Shown here: piece after piece, positions 12,683-59,717 of the stretch
Position numbering within the stretch: position 1 is the stretch's first letter
How the letters are laid out: the number at the start of each line of letters is the position of its first letter
From: Candidatus Oxydemutatoraceae bacterium
GTDB taxonomy: Bacteria; Pseudomonadota; Gammaproteobacteria; Poriferisulfidales; Oxydemutatoraceae
DNA length: 64,000 nt
Direction of reading: 5' to 3'
Assembly (NCBI GenBank): GCA_965219575.1
Contig: OZ244779.1
Span: forward strand, 64,001-128,000
Translations under genes and position numbers: made by a program
Notes under the pieces: generated by a model
Databases searched by the model: none
Told to the model about the DNA's origin: nothing
The model's input: only the letters and a program-made list of their open reading frames with translations

Positions 12683-12949
12683 ATGAAGAGAAAACGTTTT
12701 AGTGAAGAACAAATCATTAAGGCATTAAAGTCAAATCAAGCCGGCATGAAAGTAATCGATATCTGTCGTGATCTAGGCATCGCCGAACAGACATTTTATC
12801 GCTGGCGCAGCAAGTATAATGGCATGGAAGTGGCAGAAGCTAAACGCCTGCGAGAGCTTGAAGCCGATAATAGCAAGCTCAAGAAGCTATTGGCTGAATC
12901 GGTGATGCAGTGTGAAACACTTAAGGAGGTATTATCAAAAAAGTGGTAA
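12683..12949 (+). CDS. IS3 transposase OrfA
   Basis: MKRKRFSEEQII HTH, TFYRWRSKY. Confidence 0.93.
   Translation: MKRKRFSEEQIIKALKSNQAGMKVIDICRDLGIAEQTFYRWRSKYNGMEVAEAKRLRELEADNSKLKKLLAESVMQCETLKEVLSKKW
12923..12943 (+). promoter_or_regulatory. -1 programmed frameshift signal
   Basis: AAGGAGG (12923-12929) upstream of AAAAAAG (12937-12943) at the OrfA/OrfB overlap; OrfB is in the -1 frame. Confidence 0.8.
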
Positions 12950-16896: not shown

Positions 16897-17344
16897 TGAC
16901 GTTACCCCATTTTTAGGGCCACCTGCAATGTCAGTTTTCATGCTATTGCCTCCGCAAATACACTCGGAGGTTGATACCTCAATGCGCGGTGCGCACGGAC
17001 TTCATCATAATCTATGCGCCAGTCTTCTATAATCTCTCTGGCCTCTTTTATTGAACGAAACCAGAACTGGCTCAGGCAACCAGCTCGGAACTTGCCGTTG
17101 AAACTTTCTACAAAGGCATTCCGGGTCGGTTTGCCGGGTTGGATAAAGTCCAATTCCACCTGCTGGTCTCGGTTCCAGTGGAACATGGCATTGCATCTAA
17201 ACTCGGTGCCATTGTCGCAGACGATGCGTACCGGCTTTGCGTCGAGCCGTTCTATCAATTAAGTTCTCCTGTAATGTTTTTAACTTCTCTAGTTTATCGG
17301 AAAAACCAACTTAAACATTGGTACTAAATTCGGGGAGAACGTCA
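16897..17344 (-). mobile_element. Internally deleted IS3 copy (448 bp), both IRs retained
   Basis: Same TGACGTT ends as 12595-13808; left-end leader fused at about 17258 to the distal OrfB; no target duplication. Confidence 0.9.
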
Positions 17345-23300: not shown

Positions 23301-26300
23301 GGTTAATGTAAAGGTTATGCTCGTATCGGTCGTTATCGTATCGGTTTGCGTCGGTACCACCGATACGATAGACCGGCTCGATGACATCGCCTCCAAAACG
23401 ACACGATCGCCGATATCAAAATTAGTGTCCGACACCAACACCACGACCTGTGTGGTGTTGCCCGGCTTTATCGCGAGCTGCGGCGCAATAATAATCTCAA
23501 GCATCGGAGCTTCGTTCCCTTCGACTTCCACCTCAAACTGTTTTGAAACCTCGGAGTTCGACACACCTCTGCCGTCATTCACCGTCGCAGTGACTGTCGC
23601 AATACCGACACCGATAGCGGTAATCTTAATCGTGCGGGTCGTACCTGCTCCCTCTACACTTACGCTTACGACTTCGGGTTCATCCGATTGAATACCGAAT
23701 ATTAGATCACTTGATATATCGTCGGTGTCGGCATCGCTTAGCACTACAACAAACTTGGTCTCGGTTCCTTTGAACAGCCTAATCCGTTGCAAAGGTATAC
23801 CGCTAATCTTCGGCGAATTATTCACACGCTCTCTATGAGTATATCTCGGAGCGTCAATCGTTTCACTATAACCTTGACCATCGGTATAAGTCGCTTCTGC
23901 ACGAAATACACTGCTATCTTTTACTATCTGAAATCTGCTGCCGCCTTCCAACAAAATACTAGAACCCGATATGATGTACTGGGCTTCGGTAGCTCCCTCA
24001 ATATCCAGCCAATCATTCTCCGAAGGACAAAAGAATCCGTTCCCTTCACATACCTGCCATTGATACGCCACAGCCTCACCGGTGCCTCCGTCAGGATCAT
24101 CGGAGGATACGGTTGTCATGATTGCCGTATCTCCGTTTATTTCGTCTAGGGAGAGTCCTAATCTTGCAGAGCCATTATTTTTCTTGTTCACCACGACCAG
24201 TACCGTTCTTGTCGTAAAGAGCTCCCCGTCGCTTACTCCCACCTCCAGATTGAGTATCGTTTGGGTGGATACGGCATCTCTTATATAGTAGGGTGGAATG
24301 CTTAATCTCGCCGGATTGCTATTCTCATTGCTCAATACCCCGGAGTCCCCAATCCAGAGATACATTAAGTCGTCATAGTTCGGATCACTCGCTGTCACGC
24401 TAATGTCCTGCGTATCACCCTCACTGATCATCTTTGCCACAGGAACGGTAATAATCGGTCGTTCATTTGCAACCGTATAGGAGTTTGAGCGAATAACTAC
24501 CGATTGCCCTAGACTATCGATGACCGTCATTTCTAAACTATAGCTTGTGCCTGCGGCGCGTCCCTCTCTATTGTCCGCTATCGTATAGGTCGGGCTGGTA
24601 GCACCCGCTATCGCAACACCCTCTCTATACCATTGATAATTTACCTCAACAATGCCGTTCGCATCCTCTACGATTGCAGTCAATAGCCATTGGTCATCGG
24701 GATCTACACGCACACCACCGGTCGGCTTCGCATCGACAGACACCAGCAAAGAGACACTATCGGTTGACACGCTCCTATCCGTTGCAGTGAATACAATAGT
24801 CGCTGTTCCTGCTTTAATACCGCTTAGTGTGAAGGGTACGCTCATATCGGTCGCTATAGGGTCGGTTCTCGTCGGTATCACCGATACGATAGAGCGGCTT
24901 GACGACATCGCCTCCAAAACCACACGATCGCCGACATCAAAATTAATGTCCGATATCAAAACCATTACCTGTGTGGTGTTGCCCAGCCCTAGTATTTGCT
25001 GTGGGAAAACAATAACCTCAAGCATCGGGGCTTCGTTCCCTTCGACTTCCACCTCAAACCGTTCCGAGACTTCGGAGTTCGACATACCTCTACCATCGTT
25101 GACCGTCGCAGTGATTGTCGTAATACCGACACCGATAGCGGTAATCTTAATCGTACGGGTGGTACCCGCGCCTTCTACATCAACCCTTGCAACTTCGGGT
25201 ATGTCGGATTGAATACCGAATACCAGATCGCTTGATATATCGTCGGCATCGGGATCGTTCAGCTCCACCTCAAACTCGGTCTTTGTTCCTTCCAACAACC
25301 TAATCCGTTGTACGGGTAGTCCGTTAATCGTCGGCGACGCATTGACACGTTTTGAATAACTATAGCCTTGCGAATACACCTCTTCGCGATAGCCCTGACC
25401 ATCGGTATAAGCCCCTTCTACGCGAAATAGACTGCGACCTTCTACTAAAAGAAATAGATCGCCACCTTCCACCGAAATACTAGAACCCAATATCATGTAT
25501 TGTGTTCCGGTGGCGTCGTCAATATCCAACCAATCATTAGCCGACGGACAACCCGCTTCATTTCCTGCACAGACCTGCCATTGATACGCCACAGCCCCAC
25601 TCATTCCATTGTCGGGATCGTCGGATAATACCATCGTCGTCAGTGTCGTCCCTGCGCTTACTATTTCTATGGAGGTTCCTAATCTCGCAGAACCATTGTT
25701 TCTCTTGTTCACCACGACCGATACCGTCCCGGTCGTAGCAAGCTCTCCATCGCTTACTCTCACTTCTAAATTAACTGTTGTCCGAGAGGATACGGCATCT
25801 TGTATATAGTCCGGTGGAATACCGAGTGTTGTCGGATTGCTATTGTCATTGCTCAATACCCCGGAATCCTCGCTCCAGCGATACATTAAGTCGTCATAGT
25901 TCGGATCTCTCGCAATCACGCTAATGTCCTGCGTATCACCTTCGTTTATCATCTCCGCTACAGTAATACTTGTGATAATCGGTCGTTCATTCGCAATCAT
26001 ATAGGAGTTTGATTGGATAACTACCGATTGTTCTATACTATCAATGACCGTCAGTTCTAAACTATAGTTTGTGCCTGCGGCGCGTCCTGCTCTATTGTCC
26101 GGTATCGTATAGGTCGGGCTGGTAGCACTCGCTATCGCAACACCATTCCTATACCACCGATAATTTACCTCAACGATACCGTTCGCATCCTCTACCATTG
26201 CAGTCAACAACCATTGGTCATCGGGATTTACACGCAAGCTACCACTCGGTTTCGCATCAATCAATAGTGTGAAGGTCGTCCGTGTGCTGCCGCCTATACC

Positions 26301-29300
26301 GTCATCGACAGACACGGTCACCATCAAACCTGTCCCGTTCTTGCTTGCATCTCCGATTAGCGGCACACCGACCAAAGTTCCCGTCGTAGTGATTACGATG
26401 CTTTGCGGCAACCCGACTGCGCTATACCTTAATACATCATCGTCGGCATCGGCAAAAAACTCGCTGGTCTTCAGCTCGAATGCTTCTCCTACCGTTGCCA
26501 CAACTCGCGATGGCACATCGTCGGACAACACCTGCGGTGGTGTATTGACCCGTACCATAACCTCTGTATCGGTACTGACATTCTTACTATCGGTTGCGGT
26601 GAATGTAATCGTCGCTTCTCCACTTTGCTCGGCGGTTAGCATGAAGGTTATCATCGTATCGGTCGTTATCGTGTCGGTTTGTGTCGGTAGCACCGATACC
26701 CTAGATCGGCTTGACGACATCGCTTCCAGAACAACACGATCGCCGACATCAAAATTAGTGTCCGACACCAGCACCACGACCTGTGTGGTGTTGCCCAGTC
26801 CTGTCGTTTGCTCGGGTGCGGCAATAACCTCAAGCATCGGGGCTTCGTTCCCTTCGACTTCCACCTCAAACCGTTCCGAAACCTTGGAGTTTGACACACC
26901 TCTATCATCGTTCACCGTCGCAGTGATTGTCGCAATACCGGCACCGATAGCGGTAATCTTAATCGTGCGGGTCGTACCCGCACCTGCCACATCAACCCTT
27001 GCAACTTCGGGTATATCGGACTGAACACCGAATACTAGATTGCCGGAAATATCGTCGGCATCGGCATCATTTATTGTTACATTCAATGTGGTTTCTGTTC
27101 CTTCAAACAGCCTGATCCGTTGCAAAGGTAGACCGCTAATCGTCGGCGACGCATTGACACGCCCTGAATAACTATAGCCTTGCGAATACACCACTTCGCT
27201 ATAGCCCTGACCATCGGTATAAGTTCCTTCTACACGAAATAGACTATCACCCACTACTAAGGGAAGTGTGCTGCCATCTTCCAGCAAAATACTAGAATCC
27301 GATATGATGTATTGTGTTCCGCCGGCGTCGTTAATATTCATCCAATTACTCTCCGATGGACAACGCCCTTCATTCCCTTCACAGACTTGCCATTGATATC
27401 CTACAGCCCCACTAACTCCATTGTCGGGATCGTCGGATAATACCATCACCGCTAATGTCGTCTCTCTGCTTCCTATTTCTATGAGGTTTCCTAAAGTTGC
27501 AGAACCATTGTTCTGCTTGTTGACCACCACCGATACCGTCCCGGTCGTGGCGAGCTCTCCGTCGCTTACTCTCACCTCTAAATTAACTGTTGTTCGGGTG
27601 GATGCGGCATCTTTTATATAGTCCGGTGGAATGCCGAGTATTGCCGGGTTACTATGCTCATTGCTCAATATTCCGGAATCCTCGCTCCAGCGATACATTA
27701 AGTTGTCATAGTTCGGATCACTCGCACTCACGCTAATATTTTGCGTATCGCCTTCACCGATCATCTTCGTTGCAGTAGTGCTTATGATAACCGGCCGTTC
27801 ATTCGCAACTCTAAGCGAGTTGGATTGAATAACTACCGATTGCCCTATACTGTCTATAACCGTCAGTTCTAAGCGATAGCTTGTGCCGGTCGCACGCCCT
27901 TCTCTATTATCCGCTATCATGTAGTTCCGATTGGTGGCATTAGCTATCACAACGCCATTTCTATACCACCGATAATCCACCTCGGCTATACCGTTCGCAT
28001 CCTCTATCGTTGAAGTCGAACCCAATAACCATTTATTGCTGCTATCCGGTTCTATGCGCACACTACCGGTCGGCTTCGCATCGACACGCACCGACACGGT
28101 TTCACTATCGGCCGCCCCTTTGCTATCGATTACAGTAAACCTAACCATTGCAGTACCCCCTCTGACACCTTTCAGCGTAATGCGCTCCGTCTTATTACTA
28201 CTTATTCCGGCAATTTGCCTCGGCTCTACTAACACTTCCGATACCACGGATGATGTTAATAACACCCTATCGCCGGCATCAAAATTATCATCCATCACTT
28301 CGACCGAGATCACTATCCTGTCATCCACCGATATCAATTCGGACAGTGATGTGATTGTAATTTTAGGGGCATCGTTCGTTTCTGTGGTCACCACAAATGT
28401 CGTACTACTTACAGAATCGGCTGAACCTTCACCGTCGTCCACCGACACCGTAATCTCCGACCTACCGATATCCGAACCGGTGAAAACACGAAGTGTACGA
28501 ACTAAACCGCCGCCTTCGGCTATGCTCGCAGTTGCAATGTTGTCGTTGCTAGACTTAACACCGGTCTTGAATTGGGTCGGATCGTCGCCAATACCGACAC
28601 TTAATACGACATTCAAATCTTTCACGGTCTCCGTCAATAATCTGATATCCGATATCGGTTCTATAGGTGCTGTGCGTACGATTTGAAGTTGCCCGGTCAG
28701 CGGTGTGCCGCAATCCGGATCTTCGGCAGTGCCACATGCCGGTTGACTTTGATCAAGTCCTACCGCATATTCAAGCGTCGGGTATTGATCGGTTGCGCTA
28801 AAATCCCAATCGGCAGTACTCCAATCGTAATAAATCTCTGTCACACTATTGCCCGGTTGCGTAGGTATTTGCATCTCTACACTGGTCCTAGAAATGCCAC
28901 CGGCACTTACTACGGTGGGGTTATTGGTTTTATTCCAATAACTTTTTTCAACATGACCGTCCCTATTCTCTCCGATTAGTCCGCCGCTATTGGCATCTCC
29001 TCTTACACGACCTGTCGCATAGCTTTTAGTAACTCTGCCGACACCCGAGTTGTTAGCTAGACCTAGATTAACCCCGACTAATCCACCGACCCCGTCTTTG
29101 CCTCTCACATTACCTTGAGCATAGCTGTTTATAATGGCTCCTCTTGCACTCCATCCGACCAAGCCTCCGATATAGCGATTCGCACCGTCCACATTACCTC
29201 TAGCATAACTATTCGTAATCGTACCCTGAAGATTATTACCGACAAAGCCTCCGACTCCGTTATCGCCTTTTACAAATCCGAGAGCATAACTATTCGTAAT

Positions 29301-32300
29301 AGCTCCTGAATTCCAACCGGCTAAACCCCCCACATCCGCCCTGCCTATAATGCGCTCTCCGGTATAACTATTTGTAATAATCCCGCTATTTTCCCCGGCT
29401 AAGCCACCGACTCTACCGCCCCCGTCCACTTTGACTTCCGCTCTGCTACGCATAATAATCCCGGTATTGTTGTTCCTGCCAACCAGACCACCGACTTCTT
29501 CCTCACCGTTCACATTCCCTTTTGCATAGCTATCGCTGATTGTGCCACCGTCGTTATCACCCACCAAACCACCGACATTCCGACGAAGTCCCACTACCGT
29601 ACTGCTTGAATAACTATCGGAAATCGTCCCACCACGATGCCAACCGACTAATCCTCCCACATCGTACGTGCCACTCCCTCTCACTTGTCCTGTTACATAA
29701 CTACCGATGATAGAACCGCCCTGTTTGTACCCGACTAAGCCACCTACACCTTGATTACCCGAAATATTCACATCTAATAAGCCGACATTTGCTATCTCGG
29801 CATTACTCGCCGTGATACCGAATAAACCAACACCTCTCGCAGCACTACTCCTATCTATTCTTAAGTTAGCAATCGTATGACCCTTTGCATTGAATGTGGC
29901 ATCAAAAGGTGCTTTTGAAGTACCGATCGGTAGCCAACCCGAACCCGTCGTCCAAGCCGTGCCGATAATTCCACTACGATAACTTGTGCTTCGTTCAAAA
30001 TCTAAACTCCGTTTTAGTTCATAGCCCTTACAACCCGCATCGGGACAACCTGTGGTAATCTTATCCGCCGTCTCGTTTTGTCTATAACCGCTACCGTCCA
30101 ACTGATAGCGAATGGCATCCAAACCTTCCAAATCATTTATTTCTATCAAGCCGTTGTTGTCTATATCAACATCTGTTATAAAAATAAATACTTCGGATAT
30201 AAGTACTTGTACATAGCCTTGCCCGTCGGTATAAGCATACTGTACGCGATACTCGGCGTAGGCCGTATCTTCGGGAACACGATACATATTGCCGGTAACA
30301 CCTTCTATGTCTATCCAATCGGCGTTTATATCCGCTCGCCGTTGCCACAAATAACTATTTATCGTGCCGGAACCGTCCGGGTCTGTTGACAAGTCTACTT
30401 CGGGGGCAGTTAATGTTCTATCCGATCGTGTAATAATAGGATCCGACTGTACTGCGGTACCATTATCCGCCTTAGCGATTGTCAATCTTAGGTCTTTAGT
30501 CTCAGTCTTCGTGCCATCGTTGATTTCCAATCTAATCGTAATCTCACGATCATCTTCGGTTTTGCTCAGGGAAAGCTCGGGTATCGGTACATCCAAAACC
30601 GCTTGACTAATTCCTTCCACCGGTAGTAGACGAAGCATTCCCGATACTTGTGTCCATTTATAACGCAATGTACTTTCATCTACATCCCGGGCGGTTGTTC
30701 TCTTTAGTATGATGCGCTCACCCTCGTTAAAAGTTCTATCGTTAAAGGCAAGCGTATATCGGATCAGTACATCATGGGATGTTAGCACTTCAACGGTAGC
30801 CGTAGTAACACCGACAGTGTTCAATGAAATCTCGGAACTCGTAGTACCACTCGGCATCCGTTCTCTGAAACCCCCACTACTTTCAATAATAATATCGGTA
30901 TCAAAGTTCGCAGCAGCCGGGGTCAGACGGATTTGCCTTATGTCGGTCTCGTCTATAACGCGATAACTTAATACTTCGGGCTTAAAGAACGGCGACAATA
31001 TCAAGCTACTCGGCAAACCCAATCGGAGCAACCCGAGACGTTGGTTCGGCTGCAATGTGCCGTCGCTATATTTGAGAGCAGGGTATTGTTCGGATGTGCC
31101 GAAATCCCATACATCGTCATCCCAGCTACTATATATCCCGGTCGATGTCGTGGGCAATTGCAACTCCGAAGTCGTCTTGCCTCTGCCACCGACACTACTC
31201 GCTCTACCGCTGGTCTGCCTATCCCAATAGCTATGTGTAATAACACCTGAACCAGCTGCGTTAAAACCGCCAGCATCGCGTTCCGCTACCACATTGCCGG
31301 TAGCATAGCTATTGGTAATAACACTCAGATGGAATCCGACAAAACCGCCAGCACCGCTTTCCGCTACCACATTGCCGGTGGCATAGCTATTGGTAATACT
31401 ACCATCAGTATCATGAAATCCGACAAAACCGCCACCGTCGTTGCCCGCTGTCACATTGCCGGTAGCATGGCTATTGGTAATAACAGCTGAACTAAATCCA
31501 ACAAAACCGCCAACGGTTTCGCCTCCCCGCACATGACTGGCCGCATAACTATTGGTAATACTGCCTCCTTCAGCCACTCCGATAAAACCGCCAACGGTTT
31601 GTACCGCTGCCACACTGCCGGTAGCATAGCTATCGGTAATAACAGCTGAACTAAATCCAATAAAACCGCCAACGGTTCCTCTCCCTCCCACATGACTGGC
31701 CGCATAACTATTTATAATGCGTGTTCCCTCACTTTGCCCGATAAAACCACCGGTTACTATGTCCCCTTCCACATTGCCGATAGCATGGCTATTTCTAATA
31801 CTACCAACTAAACTAATTCCGATAAAACCACCAACACCTCTGCTTTCCTCACCTCCTTGCACACGGCCGGTCGCATAGCCATTGATAATATTTACATCAT
31901 CAGTACTCCCGATAAAGCCGCCTACTCTTGAGCCTCCTTGCCCTCCCTGCACATTCCCGATAGCATAACTATTCATAATGCGTGTTCCCCCACTTTGCCC
32001 GATAAAACCGCCAATGTTTTCGCTTCTTTGGCGTACTTGTACCATACCGATTGCATAACTATTTGTAATACTACCACCGAGAGCGTGTCCGATAAAACCG
32101 CCCACTCTCCTTATTCCTGTAACACTTCCGGTTGCGTAGCTGTCGTCAAAATCAATGGCTCCAATAGCCCCACCCAAAAAACCGCCCACTCTCCTTATTC
32201 CTGTAACACTTCCGGTTGCATGGCTTTTATCAATCCTTCCACCTTTTTCATTGATAAGACCTACTAGGCCACCTACCCCTATCGCTATGCCTGTTGCGAC

Positions 32301-33374
32301 CACCTCACCATGAGCAGAACTATTCTCAATGTGTATAATATCGGCATTACCAACTAATCCACCTACCCAGTATTCCCCTTCCACCGTCCCGGTGGCATGA
32401 CTGTTAACAATTCTCCACGCTCTATCTGAAAAACTATCTAATGCTGTCCCAACCCTACCTATTAGTCCACCTACGCTAATAGCTCCGGTAACATTCCCGA
32501 CTGCACGACTATTAATGATTTGACCGGTTCTGAAAAAAGTTTCGGCAGTCGTTCCGACTAACCCACCTACCTCCGCAACTCCCGATACGGTGTTGAATGC
32601 TTGACTATTTTTAATTGTGGAATAAGTGCTACCTACTAAACCACCCACTTTATCGCCTGTTCCTATCACAACGCCGGTTGCAGAACTGTTCTCAAGAACG
32701 GGAGATGCAAGAGATGTAAAACTATTATAACCAACCAGTGCACCTATCCGAGAAACACCTCTTATACTGCCGCTAACATAGCTATTTCTAATTTTTCCGG
32801 GCTCGTTACGAGCAACCAAAGCCCCTACTCTTGATTTCCCCTGAATATTCACATCCAGTAGCCGAATATCCTTAATTTCCCCCCCGACACCATTAACAGC
32901 AAATAGACCGACATTATCGCTATTAGGCCTATTGATCGTCAAATTTCGGATAGCATAACCATTACCTTCAAACGTACTATCCTGGACTATATTCCCACTC
33001 CCGAAAGGTGCTACAACACTCCCGATCGGTAGCCAACCCGAACCTACCACCCAATCCGTGCGAATTACTCCACTGCGATAACTGTTAGCATCTAGAAAAT
33101 CTAAACCTCTCATCAGCTCATAACCCCTACAACGATTACCGGGACAACCTGCGGTGATCTTCTCTGCCGACTCGTTAGCTTTATAACCGGTGCCGTCCAG
33201 TTGATAACGGATGACATTCAGCCCCTCCAAATCGCAAATATCTATTAACCCATCGTTATCCTTGTCTATATCGGTCAAAGAACAAGGAGATAAAGGCAAT
33301 GTCTGTGCCGCGGCAAACTGCCATGGCATAGCACAAAGAAAAAATGCCAATAGAATAAATATTTTGTGTGCCAA
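17352..33374 (-). CDS. Giant secreted adhesin-like protein, 5340 aa (GLUG-type beta-helix regions, cadherin/Ig-like repeats, KVFLEGPLQ tail)
   Basis: Signal peptide, DIDKDNDGLID Ca-type loops, many VGGLVG/VGGFIG repeats, about 7 repeated modules ending YTDGQGY. Confidence 0.88.
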   Translation of the reverse strand: MAHKIFILLAFFLCAMPWQFAAAQTLPLSPCSLTDIDKDNDGLIDICDLEGLNVIRYQLDGTGYKANESAEKITAGCPGNRCRGYELMRGLDFLDANSYRSGVIRTDWVVGSGWLPIGSVVAPFGSGNIVQDSTFEGNGYAIRNLTINRPNSDNVGLFAVNGVGGEIKDIRLLDVNIQGKSRVGALVARNEPGKIRNSYVSGSIRGVSRIGALVGYNSFTSLASPVLENSSATGVVIGTGDKVGGLVGSTYSTIKNSQAFNTVSGVAEVGGLVGTTAETFFRTGQIINSRAVGNVTGAISVGGLIGRVGTALDSFSDRAWRIVNSHATGTVEGEYWVGGLVGNADIIHIENSSAHGEVVATGIAIGVGGLVGLINEKGGRIDKSHATGSVTGIRRVGGFLGGAIGAIDFDDSYATGSVTGIRRVGGFIGHALGGSITNSYAIGMVQVRQRSENIGGFIGQSGGTRIMNSYAIGNVQGGQGGSRVGGFIGSTDDVNIINGYATGRVQGGEESRGVGGFIGISLVGSIRNSHAIGNVEGDIVTGGFIGQSEGTRIINSYAASHVGGRGTVGGFIGFSSAVITDSYATGSVAAVQTVGGFIGVAEGGSITNSYAASHVRGGETVGGFVGFSSAVITNSHATGNVTAGNDGGGFVGFHDTDGSITNSYATGNVVAESGAGGFVGFHLSVITNSYATGNVVAERDAGGFNAAGSGVITHSYWDRQTSGRASSVGGRGKTTSELQLPTTSTGIYSSWDDDVWDFGTSEQYPALKYSDGTLQPNQRLGLLRLGLPSSLILSPFFKPEVLSYRVIDETDIRQIRLTPAAANFDTDIIIESSGGFRERMPSGTTSSEISLNTVGVTTATVEVLTSHDVLIRYTLAFNDRTFNEGERIILKRTTARDVDESTLRYKWTQVSGMLRLLPVEGISQAVLDVPIPELSLSKTEDDREITIRLEINDGTKTETKDLRLTIAKADNGTAVQSDPIITRSDRTLTAPEVDLSTDPDGSGTINSYLWQRRADINADWIDIEGVTGNMYRVPEDTAYAEYRVQYAYTDGQGYVQVLISEVFIFITDVDIDNNGLIEINDLEGLDAIRYQLDGSGYRQNETADKITTGCPDAGCKGYELKRSLDFERSTSYRSGIIGTAWTTGSGWLPIGTSKAPFDATFNAKGHTIANLRIDRSSAARGVGLFGITASNAEIANVGLLDVNISGNQGVGGLVGYKQGGSIIGSYVTGQVRGSGTYDVGGLVGWHRGGTISDSYSSSTVVGLRRNVGGLVGDNDGGTISDSYAKGNVNGEEEVGGLVGRNNNTGIIMRSRAEVKVDGGGRVGGLAGENSGIITNSYTGERIIGRADVGGLAGWNSGAITNSYALGFVKGDNGVGGFVGNNLQGTITNSYARGNVDGANRYIGGLVGWSARGAIINSYAQGNVRGKDGVGGLVGVNLGLANNSGVGRVTKSYATGRVRGDANSGGLIGENRDGHVEKSYWNKTNNPTVVSAGGISRTSVEMQIPTQPGNSVTEIYYDWSTADWDFSATDQYPTLEYAVGLDQSQPACGTAEDPDCGTPLTGQLQIVRTAPIEPISDIRLLTETVKDLNVVLSVGIGDDPTQFKTGVKSSNDNIATASIAEGGGLVRTLRVFTGSDIGRSEITVSVDDGEGSADSVSSTTFVVTTETNDAPKITITSLSELISVDDRIVISVEVMDDNFDAGDRVLLTSSVVSEVLVEPRQIAGISSNKTERITLKGVRGGTAMVRFTVIDSKGAADSETVSVRVDAKPTGSVRIEPDSSNKWLLGSTSTIEDANGIAEVDYRWYRNGVVIANATNRNYMIADNREGRATGTSYRLELTVIDSIGQSVVIQSNSLRVANERPVIISTTATKMIGEGDTQNISVSASDPNYDNLMYRWSEDSGILSNEHSNPAILGIPPDYIKDAASTRTTVNLEVRVSDGELATTGTVSVVVNKQNNGSATLGNLIEIGSRETTLAVMVLSDDPDNGVSGAVGYQWQVCEGNEGRCPSESNWMNINDAGGTQYIISDSSILLEDGSTLPLVVGDSLFRVEGTYTDGQGYSEVVYSQGYSYSGRVNASPTISGLPLQRIRLFEGTETTLNVTINDADADDISGNLVFGVQSDIPEVARVDVAGAGTTRTIKITAIGAGIATITATVNDDRGVSNSKVSERFEVEVEGNEAPMLEVIAAPEQTTGLGNTTQVVVLVSDTNFDVGDRVVLEAMSSSRSRVSVLPTQTDTITTDTMITFMLTAEQSGEATITFTATDSKNVSTDTEVMVRVNTPPQVLSDDVPSRVVATVGEAFELKTSEFFADADDDVLRYSAVGLPQSIVITTTGTLVGVPLIGDASKNGTGLMVTVSVDDGIGGSTRTTFTLLIDAKPSGSLRVNPDDQWLLTAMVEDANGIVEVNYRWYRNGVAIASATSPTYTIPDNRAGRAAGTNYSLELTVIDSIEQSVVIQSNSYMIANERPIITSITVAEMINEGDTQDISVIARDPNYDDLMYRWSEDSGVLSNDNSNPTTLGIPPDYIQDAVSSRTTVNLEVRVSDGELATTGTVSVVVNKRNNGSARLGTSIEIVSAGTTLTTMVLSDDPDNGMSGAVAYQWQVCAGNEAGCPSANDWLDIDDATGTQYMILGSSISVEGGDLFLLVEGRSLFRVEGAYTDGQGYREEVYSQGYSYSKRVNASPTINGLPVQRIRLLEGTKTEFEVELNDPDADDISSDLVFGIQSDIPEVARVDVEGAGTTRTIKITAIGVGITTITATVNDGRGMSNSEVSERFEVEVEGNEAPMLEVIVFPQQILGLGNTTQVMVLISDINFDVGDRVVLEAMSSSRSIVSVIPTRTDPIATDMSVPFTLSGIKAGTATIVFTATDRSVSTDSVSLLVSVDAKPTGGVRVDPDDQWLLTAIVEDANGIVEVNYQWYREGVAIAGATSPTYTIADNREGRAAGTSYSLEMTVIDSLGQSVVIRSNSYTVANERPIITVPVAKMISEGDTQDISVTASDPNYDDLMYLWIGDSGVLSNENSNPARLSIPPYYIRDAVSTQTILNLEVGVSDGELFTTRTVLVVVNKKNNGSARLGLSLDEINGDTAIMTTVSSDDPDGGTGEAVAYQWQVCEGNGFFCPSENDWLDIEGATEAQYIISGSSILLEGGSRFQIVKDSSVFRAEATYTDGQGYSETIDAPRYTHRERVNNSPKISGIPLQRIRLFKGTETKFVVVLSDADTDDISSDLIFGIQSDEPEVVSVSVEGAGTTRTIKITAIGVGIATVTATVNDGRGVSNSEVSKQFEVEVEGNEAPMLEIIIAPQLAIKPGNTTQVVVLVSDTNFDIGDRVVLEAMSSSRSIVSVVPTQTDTITTDTSITFTLTGVKAGTAAITFIVMDGAGLRGSVALSVRVNARPNDSVSITPDDTNKWLLRSTSTIADASDIVGVNYRWYRNSIAITDATSRTYMITDNRAGRATGTSYRLDLIIMDNLGQSVVIESNLYVIANERPVITSITAAEMIAEGDTQNISVSASDANYDDLMYRWSEDSGILSNEHSNPATLNVPPDYIKDVASTRTTLNLEVEVSDGELATTSAVLVEVRKKNNGSATIRISVEIGSRGTTSTAMILSDDPDGGTSGTMVYQWQVCEGNEGRCPSQSHWMNIDDAGGIRYMISGSSILVEDGSTFPLVEGGSLFRVEGTYTDGQGYREEVYSQGYSYSTRVNASPTISGLPAQRIRLFEGTEAEFEVELNDLDADDISSNLVFGVRSDTPEVARVDVAGAGTTRTIKITGVGAGIATITATVNDDRGVSNSKVSERFEVEVEGNEAPMLEVIAVPMQTIGLGNTTQVVVLLSDTNFDVGDRVVLEAVSSSRSRVSVLPTQTDTITTDTIITLMLTAKQSGEATITFTATDSKNVSTDTEVMVRVNTPPQVLFDNVPSRVVATVGEAFELKTSEFFADADDDVLRYSAVGLPQSIVITTTGTLVGVPLIGDASKNETGLMVTVFVDDGIGGSTRTTFTLLIDAKPSGSLRIEPDNSDKWLLRAASTIEDANGIVEVDYRWYRNGVAIAGATSQTYTIPDTRAGRTAGTSYSLEMMVVDSIGQSVIIQSNSHTIANERPVIIVSGAEMINEGDTQDISVSASDPNYDDLMYRWSEDSGVLSNDNSNPATLGIPPDYIKDAASARTTLNLEVRVSDGALFTTRTLSVVVNKRNNGSARLGTAIEIVSAGTTLTTMVLSDDPDNGINGAVAYQWQVCAGNEAGCPSANDWLDIDDATGTQYMILGSSISVEGGSAFPLVEGGSLFRAAGTYTDGQGYREAVYSQGYSYSTRVNVSPTISGLPARRIRLLEGTETEFEVVLNDADADDISSDLVFGIQSGTPEVARVDVEGAGTTRTIKITAIGVGIATITATVNDGRGVSNSEVSERFEVEVEGNEAPMLEVIAAPNRTIGLGNTTQVMVLVSDADFDVGDGVVLEAMSSSRSIVSVIPTRTDPIATDMSVPFTLSGIKAGTATIVFTATDRSVSTDSVSLLVSVDAKPTGGVRIEPDSSNQWLLRVASTVEDANGIVEVNYQWYREGVAIANATNPTYTIPDSRNGRAVGTSYSLEMTVMDSLGQSVVIRSNPYEVANEQPVITVPVAEISEGDRQDISVTASDPNYDDLVYRWIGDSGVLSNENSNPARLSIPPYYIRDAVSTQTILNLEVEVNDGELFTTRTVLVVVNKKNNDFARLGVSLDEINGDTAILATVSSDDPDGGTGEAVAYQWQVCEGNGFSCPSANDWLDIDGANEAQYIISGSSILLEGGSRFQIVKDISVFRAEATYTDGQGYRETIDTPGYTHRERVNNSPTISGIPSQRISLLEGAEAVFGVELSDADADDISSDLIFGIQSDEPEVASVSVAGAGTTRTIKITGIGAGITTVTATVNDRRGVSNSEVSKRFEVAVEGNEAPMLELIAAPQPAIRLGNTTQVMVLISDTNFDVGDGVVLAARSSSRTIVSVIPTQTDTITTDTSITFTLTGVIAGTATVVFTATDSRGSTANVSLLVRVGKKPTGRVRIEPDNSNKWLLRATSTLEDADNIVGVNYRWYREGVAITDATSRTYMIADNKLGRATGTSYRLDLIIMDNLGQSVVIQSNSYIVANERPVITSTTATEVIGEGDTQNISVSASDANYDDLMYRWSEDSGVFSNDNSNPATLDIPPDYIKDAASTRTTLNLEVEVSDGELATTSAVLVEVRKKNNGSATIRISVEIVSGGTTLTAMILSDDPDGGTSGTVVYQWQVCEGNEGRCPSESHWMNIDDAGGIRYMISGSSILVEGGNRFSVVEDGSLFRVKGTYTDGQGYREAVYSPERVYTTRPLLRIRTKVFLEGPLQ

Positions 33375-53899: not shown

Positions 53900-55037
53900 G
53901 CCGTCTTTTGATTACACGCCCTGCCGCAACTGCGCTTTGCAGGCAGTGCTATGGTTCAATAAAAATGTATTGATGCTGGCTTGCCTGACACTTCTCGCAG
54001 TATGCTCGGCGGCTATCGCCGACAGCGAGATCGGGTCGCCGGCGGTTGAACCGGACGGCGACGGCTCTATGAGCAATGTATACGCACAAGAAAGACCCGA
54101 CTGGTTCGGCATGTCTTTCTTGGATATCGCCGAGGATGTCGAAGAGGCGGCAGCCGAAGACAAACACTACGGACTCTATTTTTATCAGGATGGGTGCCCT
54201 TATTGTGAAAAGTTAATCAACGATAACTTCGGACAATACCGCATTAACGAATATGCAAAAGCGAACTTCAACATCGCGCCGATCAACATTTTCGGTGCCG
54301 TCGAAGTAACCGACCTCGACGGTATTCCGAGACCGGAAAGTGCTTTTTCCGAACACCGAAAAATTCAATTCACACCGACGATGATTTTTTTCTCACCGCT
54401 GGGAGAAGTCTTTCGCATGAACGGCTATTATCCACCGCATAAATTCCTCGCAATGCTGGAATATATAACCGACGAATACTACCTCGAAGACATAACTTTT
54501 ATAGACTTCCTGCAGACCAAAGAAGTCTCTCCGGCATCCGATGAGATGCACTACGCTTCGGAAATGTTGCGCCCTCCGCTCGATATGACCGAAAACACGC
54601 TAGGCGCAAACAAACCCGTCTTGGTTTTGTTCGAACAACCGCGCTGTTTGGCGTGCGACGAATTGCATCTTGATGTCCTGAAACGAGAAGCAAGCAACGA
54701 ACTATATCGACAATTTGAAACGGTAATGATTAATGTCTACGGCAAGGAAACCCTCGTGCCGCCGAACGGCGGTGGCGAAACCAGCGAAAAAGCATGGGCG
54801 CGTGAACTGGGCATCAAATACACACCGTCTTTGGTGTTCTATCAACGGCAAAGCGAAAGCCAACCATTAGCCGAAGTGTTTCGCGTCGAAGGCTATGTGA
54901 AAACCTTTCATGTGCAATCGGCAATGGAATATATACTATCGCAGGCTTATGCAAAACCTCAAGACTTCCAAGAATTCATCAGATTACGCGCCGAGTCAAT
55001 GAGACCCGAAGACGGCTATTTAGACATCATGCACTAG
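53892..55037 (+). CDS. Double thioredoxin-fold protein (SoxW-like)
   Basis: CPYC and CLAC motifs, FTPT/YTPS cis-Pro loops. Confidence 0.78.
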   Translation: MNRPSFDYTPCRNCALQAVLWFNKNVLMLACLTLLAVCSAAIADSEIGSPAVEPDGDGSMSNVYAQERPDWFGMSFLDIAEDVEEAAAEDKHYGLYFYQDGCPYCEKLINDNFGQYRINEYAKANFNIAPINIFGAVEVTDLDGIPRPESAFSEHRKIQFTPTMIFFSPLGEVFRMNGYYPPHKFLAMLEYITDEYYLEDITFIDFLQTKEVSPASDEMHYASEMLRPPLDMTENTLGANKPVLVLFEQPRCLACDELHLDVLKREASNELYRQFETVMINVYGKETLVPPNGGGETSEKAWARELGIKYTPSLVFYQRQSESQPLAEVFRVEGYVKTFHVQSAMEYILSQAYAKPQDFQEFIRLRAESMRPEDGYLDIMH

Positions 55038-55063
55038 AGCCTCCCCCCAATTCACAAAAACCA

Positions 55064-55264
55064 CCGTAGGGGCGGACTTGTATGTCCGCCCTAAAGTGTC
55101 GTTCTGCACAGCCGTAATCGCTTGCGCAGTATGGTTTTGGTTTCCATAAATTAACTGGTGTACGATTTTATTTGTGCGGACGCAACGCGTTACAGTTCTG
55201 CATAACGTTACGCCGATTGAGCCGGTAGGTCAATCGACGGTTCTATTTTTCAACAGCCCCATGT
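55064..55264. repeat. Mosaic repeat colinear with 2234-2434
   Basis: REP + spacer + CCGATTGA hairpin + TTTTCAACAGCCCCATGT. Confidence 0.88.
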
Positions 55265-55540
55265 TTATGATGCCACCGCCAATACAACGCTTGCCAAGAA
55301 TACACCTATAATCGAGGTCATCGCAACGATGCTTCCGATGAATAATGCAACACCCCATTTTGTGATGTCTGCTCTTAGTTCCGATTGGGCTGCTTTTACT
55401 TCTGCTATCTCGGATTTAACTTCAGCCTTAAACTCCGTTATCTCAGACTTAACTTCAGCCTTAAACTCCGCTATTTCAGACTTAAACTCTGTGCGCATGT
55501 TAACTATCATTTCGTATAGTTTTTCGTTGGTTATGTTCAT
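55265..55540 (-). CDS. Small coiled-coil/TM protein (subfamily A), 91 aa
   Basis: Paralogue of 1620; start at MNITNEKL after GGAG. Confidence 0.75.
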   Translation of the reverse strand: MNITNEKLYEMIVNMRTEFKSEIAEFKAEVKSEITEFKAEVKSEIAEVKAAQSELRADITKWGVALFIGSIVAMTSIIGVFLASVVLAVAS

Positions 55541-55731
55541 ATCTTTCTCCATATTGAAATTATAAATAAATACCTCGCTAAAGCAAGGCTTCGCTACGGA
55601 TACTAATAGCACAGCGGCATATTTCCGAGATTCGGCAACCCGACGAACGGTAGCAAATATCAGACAGACGGTGACCTTGGCCCATTTTTAGTGCCACATC
55701 CATAACGAATTTTCATCCTGCCGCCTCAAAT

Positions 55732-55758
55732 TTGACAGCCCCCCCCCCATGCTAAATT
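55732..55758 (+). promoter_or_regulatory. Sigma-70 promoter with C10 tract in the spacer
   Basis: TTGACA-G-C10-ATGC-TAAATT (15-bp spacer, extended -10 TG). Confidence 0.7.
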
Positions 55759-55824
55759 CCCTATTTTTAATTAATAAAACATAAGACTGTTAAAGTTTAT
55801 AGTAATCAACAAAGGAGAAAGGAA

Positions 55825-56871
55825 ATGATGTATTGGGCAATGCGTACTTACAGAAAATCAGAAAAGCATACTTACAAAAAAGCGGCAGAGCTGCGCAAAT
55901 TCCTTGCTAACGAATTATTCTCAAAGGGTCGGCTACGTCAAGGTTGGGGATGGGAACACGATCAGGACCTTCGCAAAATTCGAGAAATGTTGCGTAAGGG
56001 CAAGACGCTCAATGACGGACAGAACAAAGCTAACGGAAATCGATTTATGCTTGATGGCGACCCTTCACAACACATGAACGTCGGTGATATCGTTCTAGTG
56101 CCGAACATGCCGTACGACGGCACCTTCACGCTTTGCCGCATCACTGGCCCCTACGAATATGAAGTCTCAGAGCATGGTGAATTCGGTCATATTCTACCTG
56201 TTGAGGTGCTGACACTAAGTGGTGTTGCAAACAATCACGAACTGGTTGATGCTGGACTTCGCCAAAGCCTGCGATGTCTTCGCCGGAAATGGTGCATATC
56301 TCCTTACTCCGACTGTCTGGAGGCGATAATCCAGAGCAATCTTTCTGCCGAATCCCTTGCACAGGGCGTCACGGCAGCGGAGCGTACCGACAGCCTTGTT
56401 TCTGAACTCATCACCGAACCAATTAACGTTATGGCGAGCGATCTCGCAGATAAGCTCCCCAAATTCCTTCAAGGTGCGGAATGGGAGACTGGCATCCTGT
56501 CCGCGTTGGAACCGTTGTTTCCGGCAACCGTTCGACACACTGGTGGCAGAAGCGAACAAGGCGCGGACTTGGAAGTCGTCATTTCCAACCCTTTTGACGA
56601 TAGTAAAAATTGGATAGTGCCGATTCAGGTCAAAGACCATTGGGGCACTGAAAGAAAGGGTGTTGTCCGCCAACTCGAAGAAGCCTATGATACGCGCTCC
56701 GAGAGAGGCATTGTCATTGCCGTGGTGCTCCTCGTAACCAGAGCAGAATCTTCCCCTGAATTGGAAGCGGAGATGTCTCGGTTAAGCGATGAAAAAGGCG
56801 TACCGTTCATATTCTGTAGCGGTGATGATTTGATGCAGATTCTCGCAAGGGGTTTCTTGAAGCGCATCTAG
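55825..56871 (+). CDS. Putative restriction-like PD-(D/E)xK endonuclease (Mrr-like C-terminal domain)
   Basis: LRQGWG N-terminal domain; EQGADLEV...IQVK catalytic pattern. Confidence 0.7.
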   Translation: MMYWAMRTYRKSEKHTYKKAAELRKFLANELFSKGRLRQGWGWEHDQDLRKIREMLRKGKTLNDGQNKANGNRFMLDGDPSQHMNVGDIVLVPNMPYDGTFTLCRITGPYEYEVSEHGEFGHILPVEVLTLSGVANNHELVDAGLRQSLRCLRRKWCISPYSDCLEAIIQSNLSAESLAQGVTAAERTDSLVSELITEPINVMASDLADKLPKFLQGAEWETGILSALEPLFPATVRHTGGRSEQGADLEVVISNPFDDSKNWIVPIQVKDHWGTERKGVVRQLEEAYDTRSERGIVIAVVLLVTRAESSPELEAEMSRLSDEKGVPFIFCSGDDLMQILARGFLKRI

Positions 56872-56997
56872 GCAACACGCTTATCCTTGGGCTGGTTGTC
56901 CGCAGACCCTTGGAGTTGAGTTTGGGCAAAACGATATTTTTCAGCATTCCCACATGTCTGCACTAGTTAAATTCCCCTCCTATGCACTTGCAAATGG

Positions 56998-57219
56998 TTA
57001 TGATGCCACCGCCAATACGACGCTCGCCAAGAATATACCTATAATTGAGGTCATCGCAACGATGCTTCCGATGAATAATGCAACACCCCATTTTGCGATG
57101 TCTGCTCTCAGTTCCGATTGGGCTGCTTTTATTTCAGCTATCTCGGATTTAACCTCAGCCTTAATCTCTGTGCGCATATTAACTATCATTTCGTATAGTT
57201 TTTCGTTGGTTATGTTCAT
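56998..57219 (-). CDS. Small coiled-coil/TM protein (subfamily A), 73 aa
   Basis: Paralogue of 55265 and 1620. Confidence 0.75.
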   Translation of the reverse strand: MNITNEKLYEMIVNMRTEIKAEVKSEIAEIKAAQSELRADIAKWGVALFIGSIVAMTSIIGIFLASVVLAVAS

Positions 57220-57452
57220 ATCTTTCTCCATATTGAAATTATAAATAAATAGCCTGCTAAAGCAAGGCTTCGCTATAGATACTAATAGCACAAAGGCCTA
57301 TTAACGAGATTCGGCAAACCGACGAACGGTAGCAAATATTAGACAGACGGAGACATTAGCCCATTATTAGTGCCACATCCATAGCGAATTTTCATGCTGT
57401 AGCCTTCGTAAATAGACTAGGGCTTGATACGCCAAAATTATCAACCCAAAAT

Positions 57453-57485
57453 TTGACAGCCCCCCCCCCCCCCCCGTGCTATACT
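57453..57485 (+). promoter_or_regulatory. Sigma-70 promoter with C16 tract in the spacer
   Basis: TTGACA-G-C16-GTGC-TATACT (21-bp spacer, extended -10 TG). Confidence 0.7.
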
Positions 57486-57550
57486 TCCGACTTTTAACTA
57501 ATAAAACACTAATAGTAATTCAAACCATATAAATAAGGAGAGAAAATAAA

Positions 57551-58438
57551 ATGGCGAAAATAAACCTTGCTCATTTGCTAGATATAAACTTGGATCAGTT
57601 GAACCAATACAAATTTCATGCTGCTGTATGGAATGGTTGGAAACATCCTTTGGATGATTTCATAAAAGATGGAAAAATTGCAGGTAGAGGAGACGATTCG
57701 CTTTGGTGGGGGTGGCAAGCCTATCATGAGGAAGGAAAGAAAGATAGGTGGACACGTCAATACATTGTGTCGTTCATGCAATTTTACCCTGAAGGCATAA
57801 AAATGTGGTTATTCGGCGGTATATTTGAGGTGAAGGGGAAAAGAGAGGATGGTTATTATGATGTACATTTAACAGACAAAGGAAAAGAATGGATTGGTCG
57901 CTTAAAAGTTTCTTATCCGGAACCTAAAAGACAAAGATATCCATATTTAGAGAATGTTTATGATGATCTCGAATTTAGTGAGATGCTAAAAGTACGATAT
58001 TCTGGTGCAATCTTCCCTGGCTATGAAAATGTTAGTCTGAAATTTGATGAACTTGAGTTTATCGTCAATGCCAATAAAGAGGACTGGAAAAACACTTTAT
58101 CCTCTGTCAAAGGCATTTACGTTATTTTTGATAAAGAGACTGGCAAAAAATATGTAGGTTCAGCCTACGGAGAGAATGGAATTTGGGGTAGATGGTGTCA
58201 ATATGTGGAGCATCTTCACGGCGGTAACAAAGAACTAAAAAAACTCCTTGAAGGCGATAGCCTGCAGGAAATATTTCAAAAAGAAGATTCTAGAGATTAT
58301 GTAAGAAAAAATTTTAGATTCACGATGATTGAATGGACATCTTACAAAAACAAAACCGACGACTCATACATCATAGGACGAGAGAACTTTTGGAAAGAAG
58401 CACTTCTGAGCCGCGAGTTTGGATATAACGCAAATTGA
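57551..58438 (+). CDS. GIY-YIG nuclease family protein
   Basis: KGIYVI...YVGSAYG...RW..Y, HGGN, REnFWK, GYNAN; AT-rich. Confidence 0.88.
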   Translation: MAKINLAHLLDINLDQLNQYKFHAAVWNGWKHPLDDFIKDGKIAGRGDDSLWWGWQAYHEEGKKDRWTRQYIVSFMQFYPEGIKMWLFGGIFEVKGKREDGYYDVHLTDKGKEWIGRLKVSYPEPKRQRYPYLENVYDDLEFSEMLKVRYSGAIFPGYENVSLKFDELEFIVNANKEDWKNTLSSVKGIYVIFDKETGKKYVGSAYGENGIWGRWCQYVEHLHGGNKELKKLLEGDSLQEIFQKEDSRDYVRKNFRFTMIEWTSYKNKTDDSYIIGRENFWKEALLSREFGYNAN

Positions 58439-58579
58439 TTAAACCAACATACAATTAAAAAGGGACATTTTTAGGCAACCTTCCCAATATTGCACTTTCA
58501 CACTTACTAATCCCTACACATAAAATTAAATAGTAGCGTTTTGTCTCCCGATTTCGTTATTAGCATCGGAGGGTAGTAT

Positions 58580-59098
58580 TTACTGCCCCCTTGTCATTGC
58601 CAAATAAACCTGCGCTAACAGATGCGCATCTGTCAATGCGCCGTGCAGCTTGCGGTGGCTGTTATCAATCCCATAACGGCGGCACAACGCATCTAGTGTT
58701 CTGGGTTGTAAATGTCGTCTTTTAGCCATTTTCAGTGTGTCGGCAACAGTACATCGGGCTTCTGCGATAAACTTTTTGCGGTTCAAAAGTTGCAGTTCGC
58801 TGTCTAAAAAACTTAAATCAAACCGCGCATTGTGTATCAAAATTTGCGCACCTCGTACAAAAGATATAAGTTCATCACAAATGTCTGCGAACAACGGACT
58901 ATCTTTTAGCATCTTCCATGTATAGCCATGGATTTTTGTTGCATCTCTGTCTACTTTGCGTTGGGGATTTATCGTAGTATGGAAACTACGCTCCGTGATA
59001 GTACGGCCTACGATCTCAACACAAGCAACCTCTAAAATCCGATGCCCCTCTTGCGGATCCAATCCGGTGGTCTCGGTATCTAGAGCGATTTGTCTCAT
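58580..59098 (-). CDS. dnaQ: DNA polymerase III epsilon-like DEDDh exonuclease (short form)
   Basis: LDTETTG, HNARFD, LDALC, HGALTD; ends MTRGQ. Confidence 0.88.
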   Translation of the reverse strand: MRQIALDTETTGLDPQEGHRILEVACVEIVGRTITERSFHTTINPQRKVDRDATKIHGYTWKMLKDSPLFADICDELISFVRGAQILIHNARFDLSFLDSELQLLNRKKFIAEARCTVADTLKMAKRRHLQPRTLDALCRRYGIDNSHRKLHGALTDAHLLAQVYLAMTRGQ

Positions 59099-59194
59099 TG
59101 CTAACTCCTGTCTATTATTCTCGTGTGCCTTATTGAACGCTCATTATAAAAATTGCAATCACTCTGTCAATCCTAATGACGTTCCCTCATTTTT

Positions 59195-59717
59195 ATGCCA
59201 CCCCATGTAAAGGTTTTACATTCTACAATATGGACTAAGATTTTGTACGATATTACGCCGATTGACCCACTGGCTCAATCGGCGTTTCTATTGCGCCTGC
59301 CATTCTTCCGAAGGAGGGGAATGTACCAGCACTGTACTTATGCAGACCATTACGGGCTGTTGAAAAAGTATCGCCGGCGTGCAACCGTAACCGCTTGCGC
59401 CGTGAATTTATAATAACCACCAAGCCGTAGGGGCAGACCTGTGTGTCTGCCCTTAAGTACCGTTCTGCACGACACCAACCGCTTGCGCCGTATAGTTTTG
59501 GTTTCCATAAATTGAATGGATGAATGTATAAATCGTGCCGGCCAACGCGTTACGGGCGGACATGTTAGTCCGCCCCTACGGTTCGTGGATACTTTTTCAA
59601 CAGCCCCCATTAGCAACCACCCCGTCAGGCTGCGCCTGCCATTCTTCCGAAGGAGGGGAATGGACCGACACTATAATTATGCAGATACGCCACGGCTGCC
59701 TTTCCACAGGAGGGGAA
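59195..59717. repeat. Large mosaic intergenic repeat
   Basis: All repeat modules present; hosts the TIR element 59353-59607. Confidence 0.85.
59353..59607. mobile_element. TIR-bounded MITE with inverted REP doublet and 5-bp target duplication
   Basis: CGGGCTGTTGAAAAAG...CTTTTTCAACAGCCCC flanked by CATTA/CATTA. Confidence 0.8.

Follow-up and report, generated by a model that had tools for sequence, protein, structure and literature searches.

The subject of this analysis is a pair of homologous DNA units, A and B, each located directly upstream of a nuclease gene in a 64,000-nucleotide (nt) stretch of the genome of a Candidatus Oxydemutatoraceae bacterium. This stretch, referred to below as the window, comprises bases 64001-128000 of a single-contig genome of 2.37 Mb (labelled G000), and it was compared with the congeneric genomes G001, G002, G003 and G004. 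According to the explanation that is considered probable, a local duplication placed sister poly-C promoters, presumed to be prone to slippage, in front of two defence nucleases of one genomic island. The first nuclease is a predicted type IV restriction enzyme of 348 amino acids (aa), and the second is a UzuA (Uzume) nuclease of 295 aa with a GIY-YIG domain. The coordinates of all features are collected in Table 1.

The repeated DNA was delimited by a repeat search and by pairwise alignment with MAFFT. A direct repeat of ~520 base pairs (bp) was found, in which positions 55261-55781 (unit A) were ~90% identical to positions 56994-57508 (unit B). An earlier note on this DNA had claimed that 55265-55824 and 56998-57550 are homologous, and this homology proved to be real. 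Identity between the units was 93.7% in the 3' part of the small gene that each of them carries (174 nt), 92.9% in the 5' part of this gene plus its leader (168 nt), 85.1% in a relic of an insertion sequence (IS; 67 nt), 100% in the 11 nt of AAATTTGACAG, which holds the -35 hexamer, and 78.8% from the poly-C run to TAATAAAACA (33 nt). Three indels distinguished the units: one of 54 nt fell within the 33-nt coding repeats of the small gene, one of 42 nt lay in the leader, and the third was the length of the poly-C run (C10 versus C16). High identity ceased at 55781/57508, 43 nt upstream of each ATG, and within the final 43 nt only the patches ATAGTAAT and AAGGAGA were in common. The statement of the earlier note that homology stops at the ATG therefore needs correction: it fades earlier, and only the patches remain, as the list of motifs in that note implied.

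Both units contain the right-end relic of an IS3-family element. Because the same relic sits at the same place in both units, with a further 42 nt gone from unit A, it may be concluded that the units share a single origin. The relic was ~76% identical over ~85 nt to the ends of ~15 dispersed elements, which comprise the terminal repeat and the final transposase codons. Intact copies of these elements encode an NF033516 transposase, and the transposase encoded at 12943-13767 matched this IS3-family model with 221.5 bits. Units A and B were ~93% identical to each other and 83% identical to the island copies in G001 and G004. Since the identity between A and B is higher than that to the copies in G001 and G004, the duplication event appears to be specific to this lineage.

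To each unit, a candidate sigma-70-like promoter with a poly-C spacer was assigned, in which the hexamers TTGACA and TAAATT (unit A) or TATACT (unit B) flank the tract. The tracts are unusual for this DNA. In 100 shuffles of the window, zero runs of 10 C's were obtained, and among the nine C/G runs of at least 9 found in the genome, C16 was the longest. Both long C runs of the window were located at one homologous promoter position, and they differed by six bases despite the identical 11 nt preceding them. Two G11 runs were observed elsewhere (G000:C1:960367-960377 and 619127-619137). One of them is located immediately 5' of an ATG-like context and might also vary in length.

Tract lengths were also determined in assembled contigs of four sequencing runs (four studies) out of the 12 runs that covered the locus. 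Compared with the genome (tract A, C10; tract B, C16), the contigs of run X5 had the same tract A (10) and two additional C's in tract B (18), and no other difference was found over contigs of 1502 and 2102 nt. Tract A was one C shorter (9) in runs X7 and X8. The X7 contig broke at tract B and carried three other substitutions; in X8, tract B was C16, and several substitutions and a 52-nt deletion at 56772-56823 were found. In run X12, tract A was outside the coverage, and the data for tract B and for other differences were too thin to tell. Thus, among the near-identical strain assemblies (three tract-covering runs and the genome), tract A was 9 or 10 and tract B was 16 or 18. These differences are likely to reflect slippage-prone tracts. 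Close to the 3' terminus of the type IV gene, the deletion in the X8 contig would shift the frame over the last ~33 codons, and this strain may thus carry an inactive copy of the gene.

Table 1. Coordinates of the features of the locus (positions in the window).
Feature	Position	Strand	Description
Small gene A	55265..55540	-	Open reading frame (ORF) of 91 aa; N-terminal coiled coil of 11-residue repeats, C-terminal hydrophobic anchor
Native leader and promoter region of small gene A	55541..55660	-	From an alignment of six upstream regions of G000, G001 and G004
IS3-family right-end relic, unit A	55661..55727	+	42 nt shorter than the copy in unit B; from an alignment with 15 dispersed IS ends
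Candidate promoter A	55732..55758	+	TTGACA (55732-55737), G, C10 (55739-55748), ATGC, TAAATT (55753-55758); spacer of 15 nt
Type IV restriction enzyme gene (predicted)	55825..56871	+	348 aa
Small gene B	56998..57219	-	Paralog of 73 aa with fewer 11-residue repeats
Native leader and promoter region of small gene B	57220..57339	-	From alignments
IS3-family right-end relic, unit B	57340..57435	+	Terminal repeat plus 3' end of the transposase reading frame
Candidate promoter B	57453..57485	+	TTGACA (57453-57458), G, C16 (57460-57475), GTGC, TATACT (57480-57485); spacer of 21 nt
UzuA (Uzume) nuclease gene	57551..58438	+	295 aa; C-terminal GIY-YIG, N-terminal domain of uncertain fold; AT-rich
DnaQ-like DEDDh exonuclease gene	58580..59098	-	172 aa; exonuclease domain only, no C-terminal tail

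Alignments of the upstream regions suggested which nuclease gene the ancestral unit belonged to. In G001, the upstream region of an UzuA-N-like gene aligned with that of UzuA in the window; the alignment extended from the -35-like site via TGCTATA(C/A)T and ACTTT(T/C)AA to the ribosome-binding site, and where the window has the C run, the spacer in G001 is pyrimidine-rich. For the type IV gene, the 5' untranslated region (UTR) starting at TAATTAATA aligned with that of the G004 ortholog, upstream of which no such unit was present. These alignments, together with the shared IS relic, indicate that one ancestral unit was attached to UzuA; a copy of it would have been placed before the type IV gene. 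A promoter copied to a gene, rather than genes captured by a promoter, is suggested because the promoter core resembles the G001 UzuA promoters and the native 5' UTR of the type IV gene is retained, as in G004.

The following sequence of events may be proposed. The ancestral 520 bp would have comprised a paralog of a genus-specific small membrane-protein gene, its leader, the truncated IS3 end and the promoter of UzuA, and would have been duplicated locally. The copy would have landed before the type IV gene and joined the native 5' UTR at the TAA(C/T)TAATA match; both this junction and the direction of copying are deduced from the alignments. The two nucleases would then be driven by sister promoters in which the spacer between -35 and -10 is a poly-C run. 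Replication slippage would alter the run length and thus stochastically shift promoter strength, so that the cells of one clone could differ in which nuclease is expressed.

Several points weigh against this explanation. A consensus promoter scan did not call promoters A and B, owing to their spacers of 15 and 21 nt. The sigma-70 factor prefers a spacer of 17 nt, which would correspond to C12 here; in all assemblies the spacers were 14-15 and 21-23 nt, and in none 17 nt. A TG is present two bases ahead of each -10 hexamer and may make the promoters largely independent of -35 and hence of the tract length. The length differences are taken from assembled contigs of four of the 12 runs and not from reads, and homopolymers are error-prone. 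No C/G run of at least 8 was present at any of the retrieved loci of relatives, and the tract would therefore be young. The junction microhomology and the copying direction are deduced from three alignments. The sequencing runs listed for the locus included no RNA run, and an effect of tract length on expression is plausible but unproven.

Some of these points fit the alternative that two pre-existing small-gene paralogs and their upstream DNA underwent neutral duplication or gene conversion, with the poly-C changes being a by-product of slippage that has no regulatory role. In G004, a relic of the small gene is located next to a thioredoxin-like gene and a full copy lies further in, matching the positions of units A and B. 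The two small-gene positions in the island may thus be old, and gene conversion between them may be an alternative route to the present arrangement. The smooth fall of identity away from the small gene, from 93.7 to 78.8%, is also in line with a neutral process, as are the spacers that never measure 17 nt and the TG before each -10 hexamer, owing to which -35 may not matter. However, the 11 nt with the -35 hexamer remained 100% identical, whereas the flanks diverged to 85% and 79%, which suggests constraint. In addition, C16 is far beyond chance, and the two long C runs of the window share one homologous promoter position. On balance, the neutral alternative is considered unlikely, and duplication of a slippage-prone promoter is favoured.

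A bolder form of the favoured explanation was also formulated. In this form, the slippage-prone poly-C promoter spread by duplication from UzuA to an unrelated nuclease, a clone varies two type IV-like nucleases stochastically and independently of each other, and the small-gene paralogs serve as homology anchors through which promoter modules and defence cassettes are shuffled. The logic of contingency loci would then apply to the defence islands of a free-living or symbiotic sulfur bacterium, and not of a host-adapted pathogen. Taken as a whole, this proposal is regarded as rather doubtful.

The earlier note had proposed a reusable gene-capture and expression platform, that is, a unit to which incoming defence genes would be joined, always at the same junction, and from which they would be expressed. 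In accordance with this proposal, the same unit precedes two unrelated cargo genes, the junction lies at a shared TAA(C/T)TAATAAAACA motif, and the site is a defence hot spot. However, when 17 small-gene copies were inspected (five in G000, one of them degraded, and four each in G001, G003 and G004), a divergent nuclease was found to follow only two, those of units A and B, both at this locus. Plus-strand ORFs of 83-193 aa upstream of six other copies were left unannotated; most of these ORFs overlap longer minus-strand ORFs. In a BLAST search of 30 relatives with the 7.4-kb region as the query, among the matches listed, the type IV cassette matched G004 only, UzuA matched G001 and G002 only, and the promoter part was covered by no match. 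An exact 19-mer of the promoter core gave one match in species-representative genomes and six in metagenome contigs, all in unrelated contexts, in scans from which the records of this genome were possibly excluded.

The annotated neighbourhood and the promoter itself also speak against a platform. Neither an integrase nor a methyltransferase was present among the ORFs annotated between 51621 and 62037, in agreement with the earlier note, which had reported none adjacent, although an IS3-end relic is present in each unit. The promoter resembles that of UzuA itself in G001. Like integron-type cassette platforms, the locus has a single promoter-bearing unit ahead of apparently interchangeable cargo. 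Unlike them, it has no integrase and no repeated recombination sites, and there are two cargos only, each with its own 5' UTR and ribosome-binding site. Since a check for other cargo behind the unit in this genome, in relatives and in sequence collections revealed no further nuclease, a capture platform is considered very improbable. What remains of the proposal is that both cargos are defence-type nucleases with a shared, duplicated upstream expression region.

Little probability is given, too, to a functional partnership of the small tail-anchored protein with each nuclease (as a regulator, a sensor or an immunity factor) that would account for the co-duplication. The divergent arrangement at both nucleases and the purifying selection on the small gene agree with such a role, but 15 of the 17 copies are apart from any such nuclease, including four that share a conserved location behind a UPF0102 gene. 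Other genes adjoin the type IV ortholog of G004 and the UzuA genes of G001, and G002 carries UzuA yet gave no match to the small protein. The suggestion of the earlier note that the divergent membrane protein is a possible partner was therefore not upheld, since no small gene adjoins the orthologs of the nucleases in G001, G002 and G004.

Both small genes lie on the minus strand, divergent from the nucleases, and start with MNITNEK, preceded by a GGAGA site. The ratio of synonymous to nonsynonymous differing codons was 8:4 between A and B and 18:10 and 16:10 in other comparisons of paralogs. Of 379 candidates, 85 proved to be relatives of the small protein, all unnamed and 57-154 aa long, and clear copies were found in four of the five genus genomes searched (G000, G001, G003 and G004). 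Because synonymous changes exceed nonsynonymous ones among paralogs, and because these relatives and copies exist, the small gene is regarded as a real gene under purifying selection. No match was found in G002, and four other genomes of the family gave weak matches only. Among Pfam and NCBIfam models, only sub-threshold coiled-coil matches were obtained (CCDC90-like, E 1.3e-4), and XhlA was not listed; the ESM Atlas gave unnamed clusters only.

The ~120 nt upstream of the small gene were conserved in all copies from this genome, G001 and G004. A scan of 55000-59700 against Rfam, with E up to 1, gave a single chance-level match, so the leader fits no Rfam family, and its folding was no better than that of shuffles (z-score -0.17). 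A third intact paralog, of 80 aa, was observed at 1620-1862 of the window, with the same leader and no nuclease; the region upstream of it runs into DNA resembling repetitive extragenic palindromic (REP) elements and into a REP-associated tyrosine transposase (RAYT) gene. Each paralog contained a different number of the 33-nt coding repeats.

The first nuclease had been assigned to the PD-(D/E)xK superfamily in the earlier note, and this assignment was confirmed by several findings. A search with the 348-aa protein gave 427 cluster representatives at E 0.001 or better. Among 40 aligned members of the family, E221, D248, Q268 and K270 were invariant, and 28 of the 40 matched Pfam Mrr_cat, for which the protein of the window itself gave E 0.04 only. 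The AlphaFold model had a mean predicted local distance difference test score of 95.7, and MspJI and AspBHI were its best Foldseek matches. Residues 196-348 aligned with AF1548, FokI and MspJI at Z 10-11.4. Residues 1-175 aligned with YTH domains and with the EVE proteins PH1033 and MJECL36 at Z 8.4-9.1, with a root-mean-square deviation (rmsd) of ~3.0 over ~120 residues. In a sequence-profile search of the PDB, nothing was found below E 0.46. Judging from the model, the protein is built like a modification-dependent type IV restriction enzyme, in which recognition of the modified base would fall to a YTH/EVE-like pocket and cleavage to an Mrr-type PD-(D/E)xK domain.

Like MspJI and AspBHI (PDB 4f0q and 4oc8), the enzyme combines an N-terminal reader of a modified base with a PUA-like fold and a C-terminal PD-(D/E)xK domain, and has no cognate methyltransferase among the annotated neighbours. 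Unlike in these enzymes, its predicted reader is closest to YTH/EVE and not to SRA, and fits no Pfam model; identity to MspJI is 12-15%. Type IV restriction enzymes that are fusions with the PUA superfamily were surveyed in PMC6765204, and the build of the 348-aa protein is of the kind described there.

The GIY-YIG assignment of the second nuclease in the earlier note was likewise borne out. A PADLOC search, which that note had proposed as a check, matched residues 55-295 to positions 46-278 of the 278 positions of the UzuA profile PDLC03973 (E 5.8e-49). Pfam GIY-YIG (PF01541) scored 23.7 bits against a cut-off of 22.6. The C-terminal domain aligned with the I-TevI catalytic domain (Z 7.0, rmsd 2.9, 82 residues, 28% identity), and the nuclease domain aligned with PD-T4-3/CMoRE, specific for 5-hydroxymethylcytosine (5hmC), at Z 6.3. 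The N-terminal domain gave weak fold matches only (Z 4.1 or less), to ASCH, AbaSI, EVE and YTH; many of these are readers of modified bases, which provides a lead only. The protein had >2000 relatives, of which the named ones were labelled "GIY-YIG nuclease family protein". The G+C content of the GIY-YIG gene was 0.36-0.38 versus 0.46-0.53 for the gene of the 348-aa nuclease, and the former is thus the more AT-rich, as had been noted. Profile-profile comparison of the two nuclease families gave a probability of 2.8%, with no shared domain detectable. Both cargo genes probably encode modification-dependent nucleases.

The GIY-YIG domain of UzuA is noted in bioRxiv 10.1101/2024.10.26.620412. Like Uzume, a single-gene anti-phage system, the protein matches the profile up to its end and has a C-terminal GIY-YIG domain; its role in defence is predicted from the sequence. 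As distinguishing features, UzuA in this genus often adjoins a short DnaQ-like exonuclease, and here it stands behind a candidate poly-C promoter. CMoRE/PD-T4-3 is a GIY-YIG type IV enzyme specific for 5hmC (PMC12923530; PDB 9u75). A GIY-YIG nuclease is fused to a second domain in CMoRE, as in UzuA, this domain being a sensing one in CMoRE; the GIY-YIG domain is N-terminal in CMoRE and C-terminal in UzuA.

The DnaQ-like exonuclease of 172 aa is a paralog of the full-length DnaQ of 227 aa encoded elsewhere in the genome. Short exonucleases of this type were found in the islands of three genomes: in the window (Table 1), in G001 (L022 6772-7296 and 8043-8559) and in G004 (L021 6462-6986). In G001, the DnaQ-like gene is twice divergent from UzuA, in a tandem arrangement with one UzuA truncated and one DnaQ-like gene frameshifted. 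The short exonuclease is possibly an accessory of Uzume in this genus. Two further ORFs of G001, of 160 and 173 aa (L022 7418-7900 and 16497-17018), matched the N-terminal half of UzuA only, and an IS3-family end immediately precedes one of the two.

The island is located between a thioredoxin-like gene and pyrB, and its defence content differs across the four annotated genomes of the genus. HbpS-like and thioredoxin-like proteins are encoded on the left flank of the locus, and aspartate carbamoyltransferase (pyrB) and an amidohydrolase on the right flank. In three congeners, defence genes border one or both of these flanks, and in G001 they border the right flank alone. At the G004 site, an ortholog with 78% amino-acid identity to the type IV enzyme adjoins pyrB, and HEC-05/GmrSD, a dCTP-deaminase-like gene and an IS are also present. 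The G001 site contains a pair of UzuA-type genes, each accompanied by a divergent DnaQ-like gene, together with SIR2-HerA, a type IIG enzyme and a further UzuA-N-like gene. The G003 site contains two type II restriction-modification systems and Dsr1. Because different defence genes occupy the site in congeners, it is a genus-wide variable defence hot spot. In G003 (L023 8203-17993), the two type II systems include cytosine and other methyltransferases, and both nucleases of the window are missing; this gene content is compatible with a conflict between methylases and type IV enzymes.

Repeats flank the island as well. A dispersed repeat of ~254 nt is present at 59354-59607 of the window and at many other genome sites, and REP-like hairpin elements occur, for example, at 55064-55158 and 59425-59519. 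RAYT genes were found at 2434-3000 of the window and at two other genome sites. A contig of run X7 that joined 55236 to 59271 was considered as a trace of excision, and this was rejected because the short side comprised 22 letters only, within dispersed REP-like repeats. Elsewhere in the window, 211-1425 encodes a 404-aa fatty-acid-desaturase protein, the C-terminal part of which (282-392) matched an ISL3 transposase Pfam model (E 5.1e-7); it appears to be an odd fusion or a domesticated fragment. A 5340-aa ORF with long internal repeats occupies 17352-33374 on the minus strand, and a truncated IS3 transposase fragment (16938-17258) adjoins it.

Switches based on homopolymers in promoter spacers are known from Neisseria (poly-G of porA and poly-C of opc) and Bordetella (poly-C of fim). 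The candidate promoters described here resemble them in having a long G/C run between the putative -35 and -10 hexamers, with a length that varies among closely related strains. Unlike those switches, the run precedes intracellular defence nucleases and not surface antigens, and it is present twice because of promoter duplication. In addition, a 17-nt spacer, the ON length, was not seen, and switching here is only predicted. Phase-variable restriction systems and phase-variable anti-phage functions are already in print. What appears to be particular here is the duplication of a switch-like promoter, which included an adjoining gene and an IS relic and extended the promoter to another nuclease, unrelated to the first.

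The locus illustrates that common upstream DNA in a defence island need not imply a capture platform. With tracts of C9-10 and C16-18, its two promoters also form a natural pair on which the influence of spacer length on the expression of defence genes could be measured. Type IV nucleases are potentially costly for the cell since they attack DNA with modifications that the cell may acquire. If the favoured explanation is true, random ON/OFF variation would let the population hedge protection against this cost, and contingency switches could spread between defence genes via simple local duplication. The logic of contingency loci would then apply to the defence islands of a free-living or symbiotic sulfur bacterium, and not of a host-adapted pathogen.

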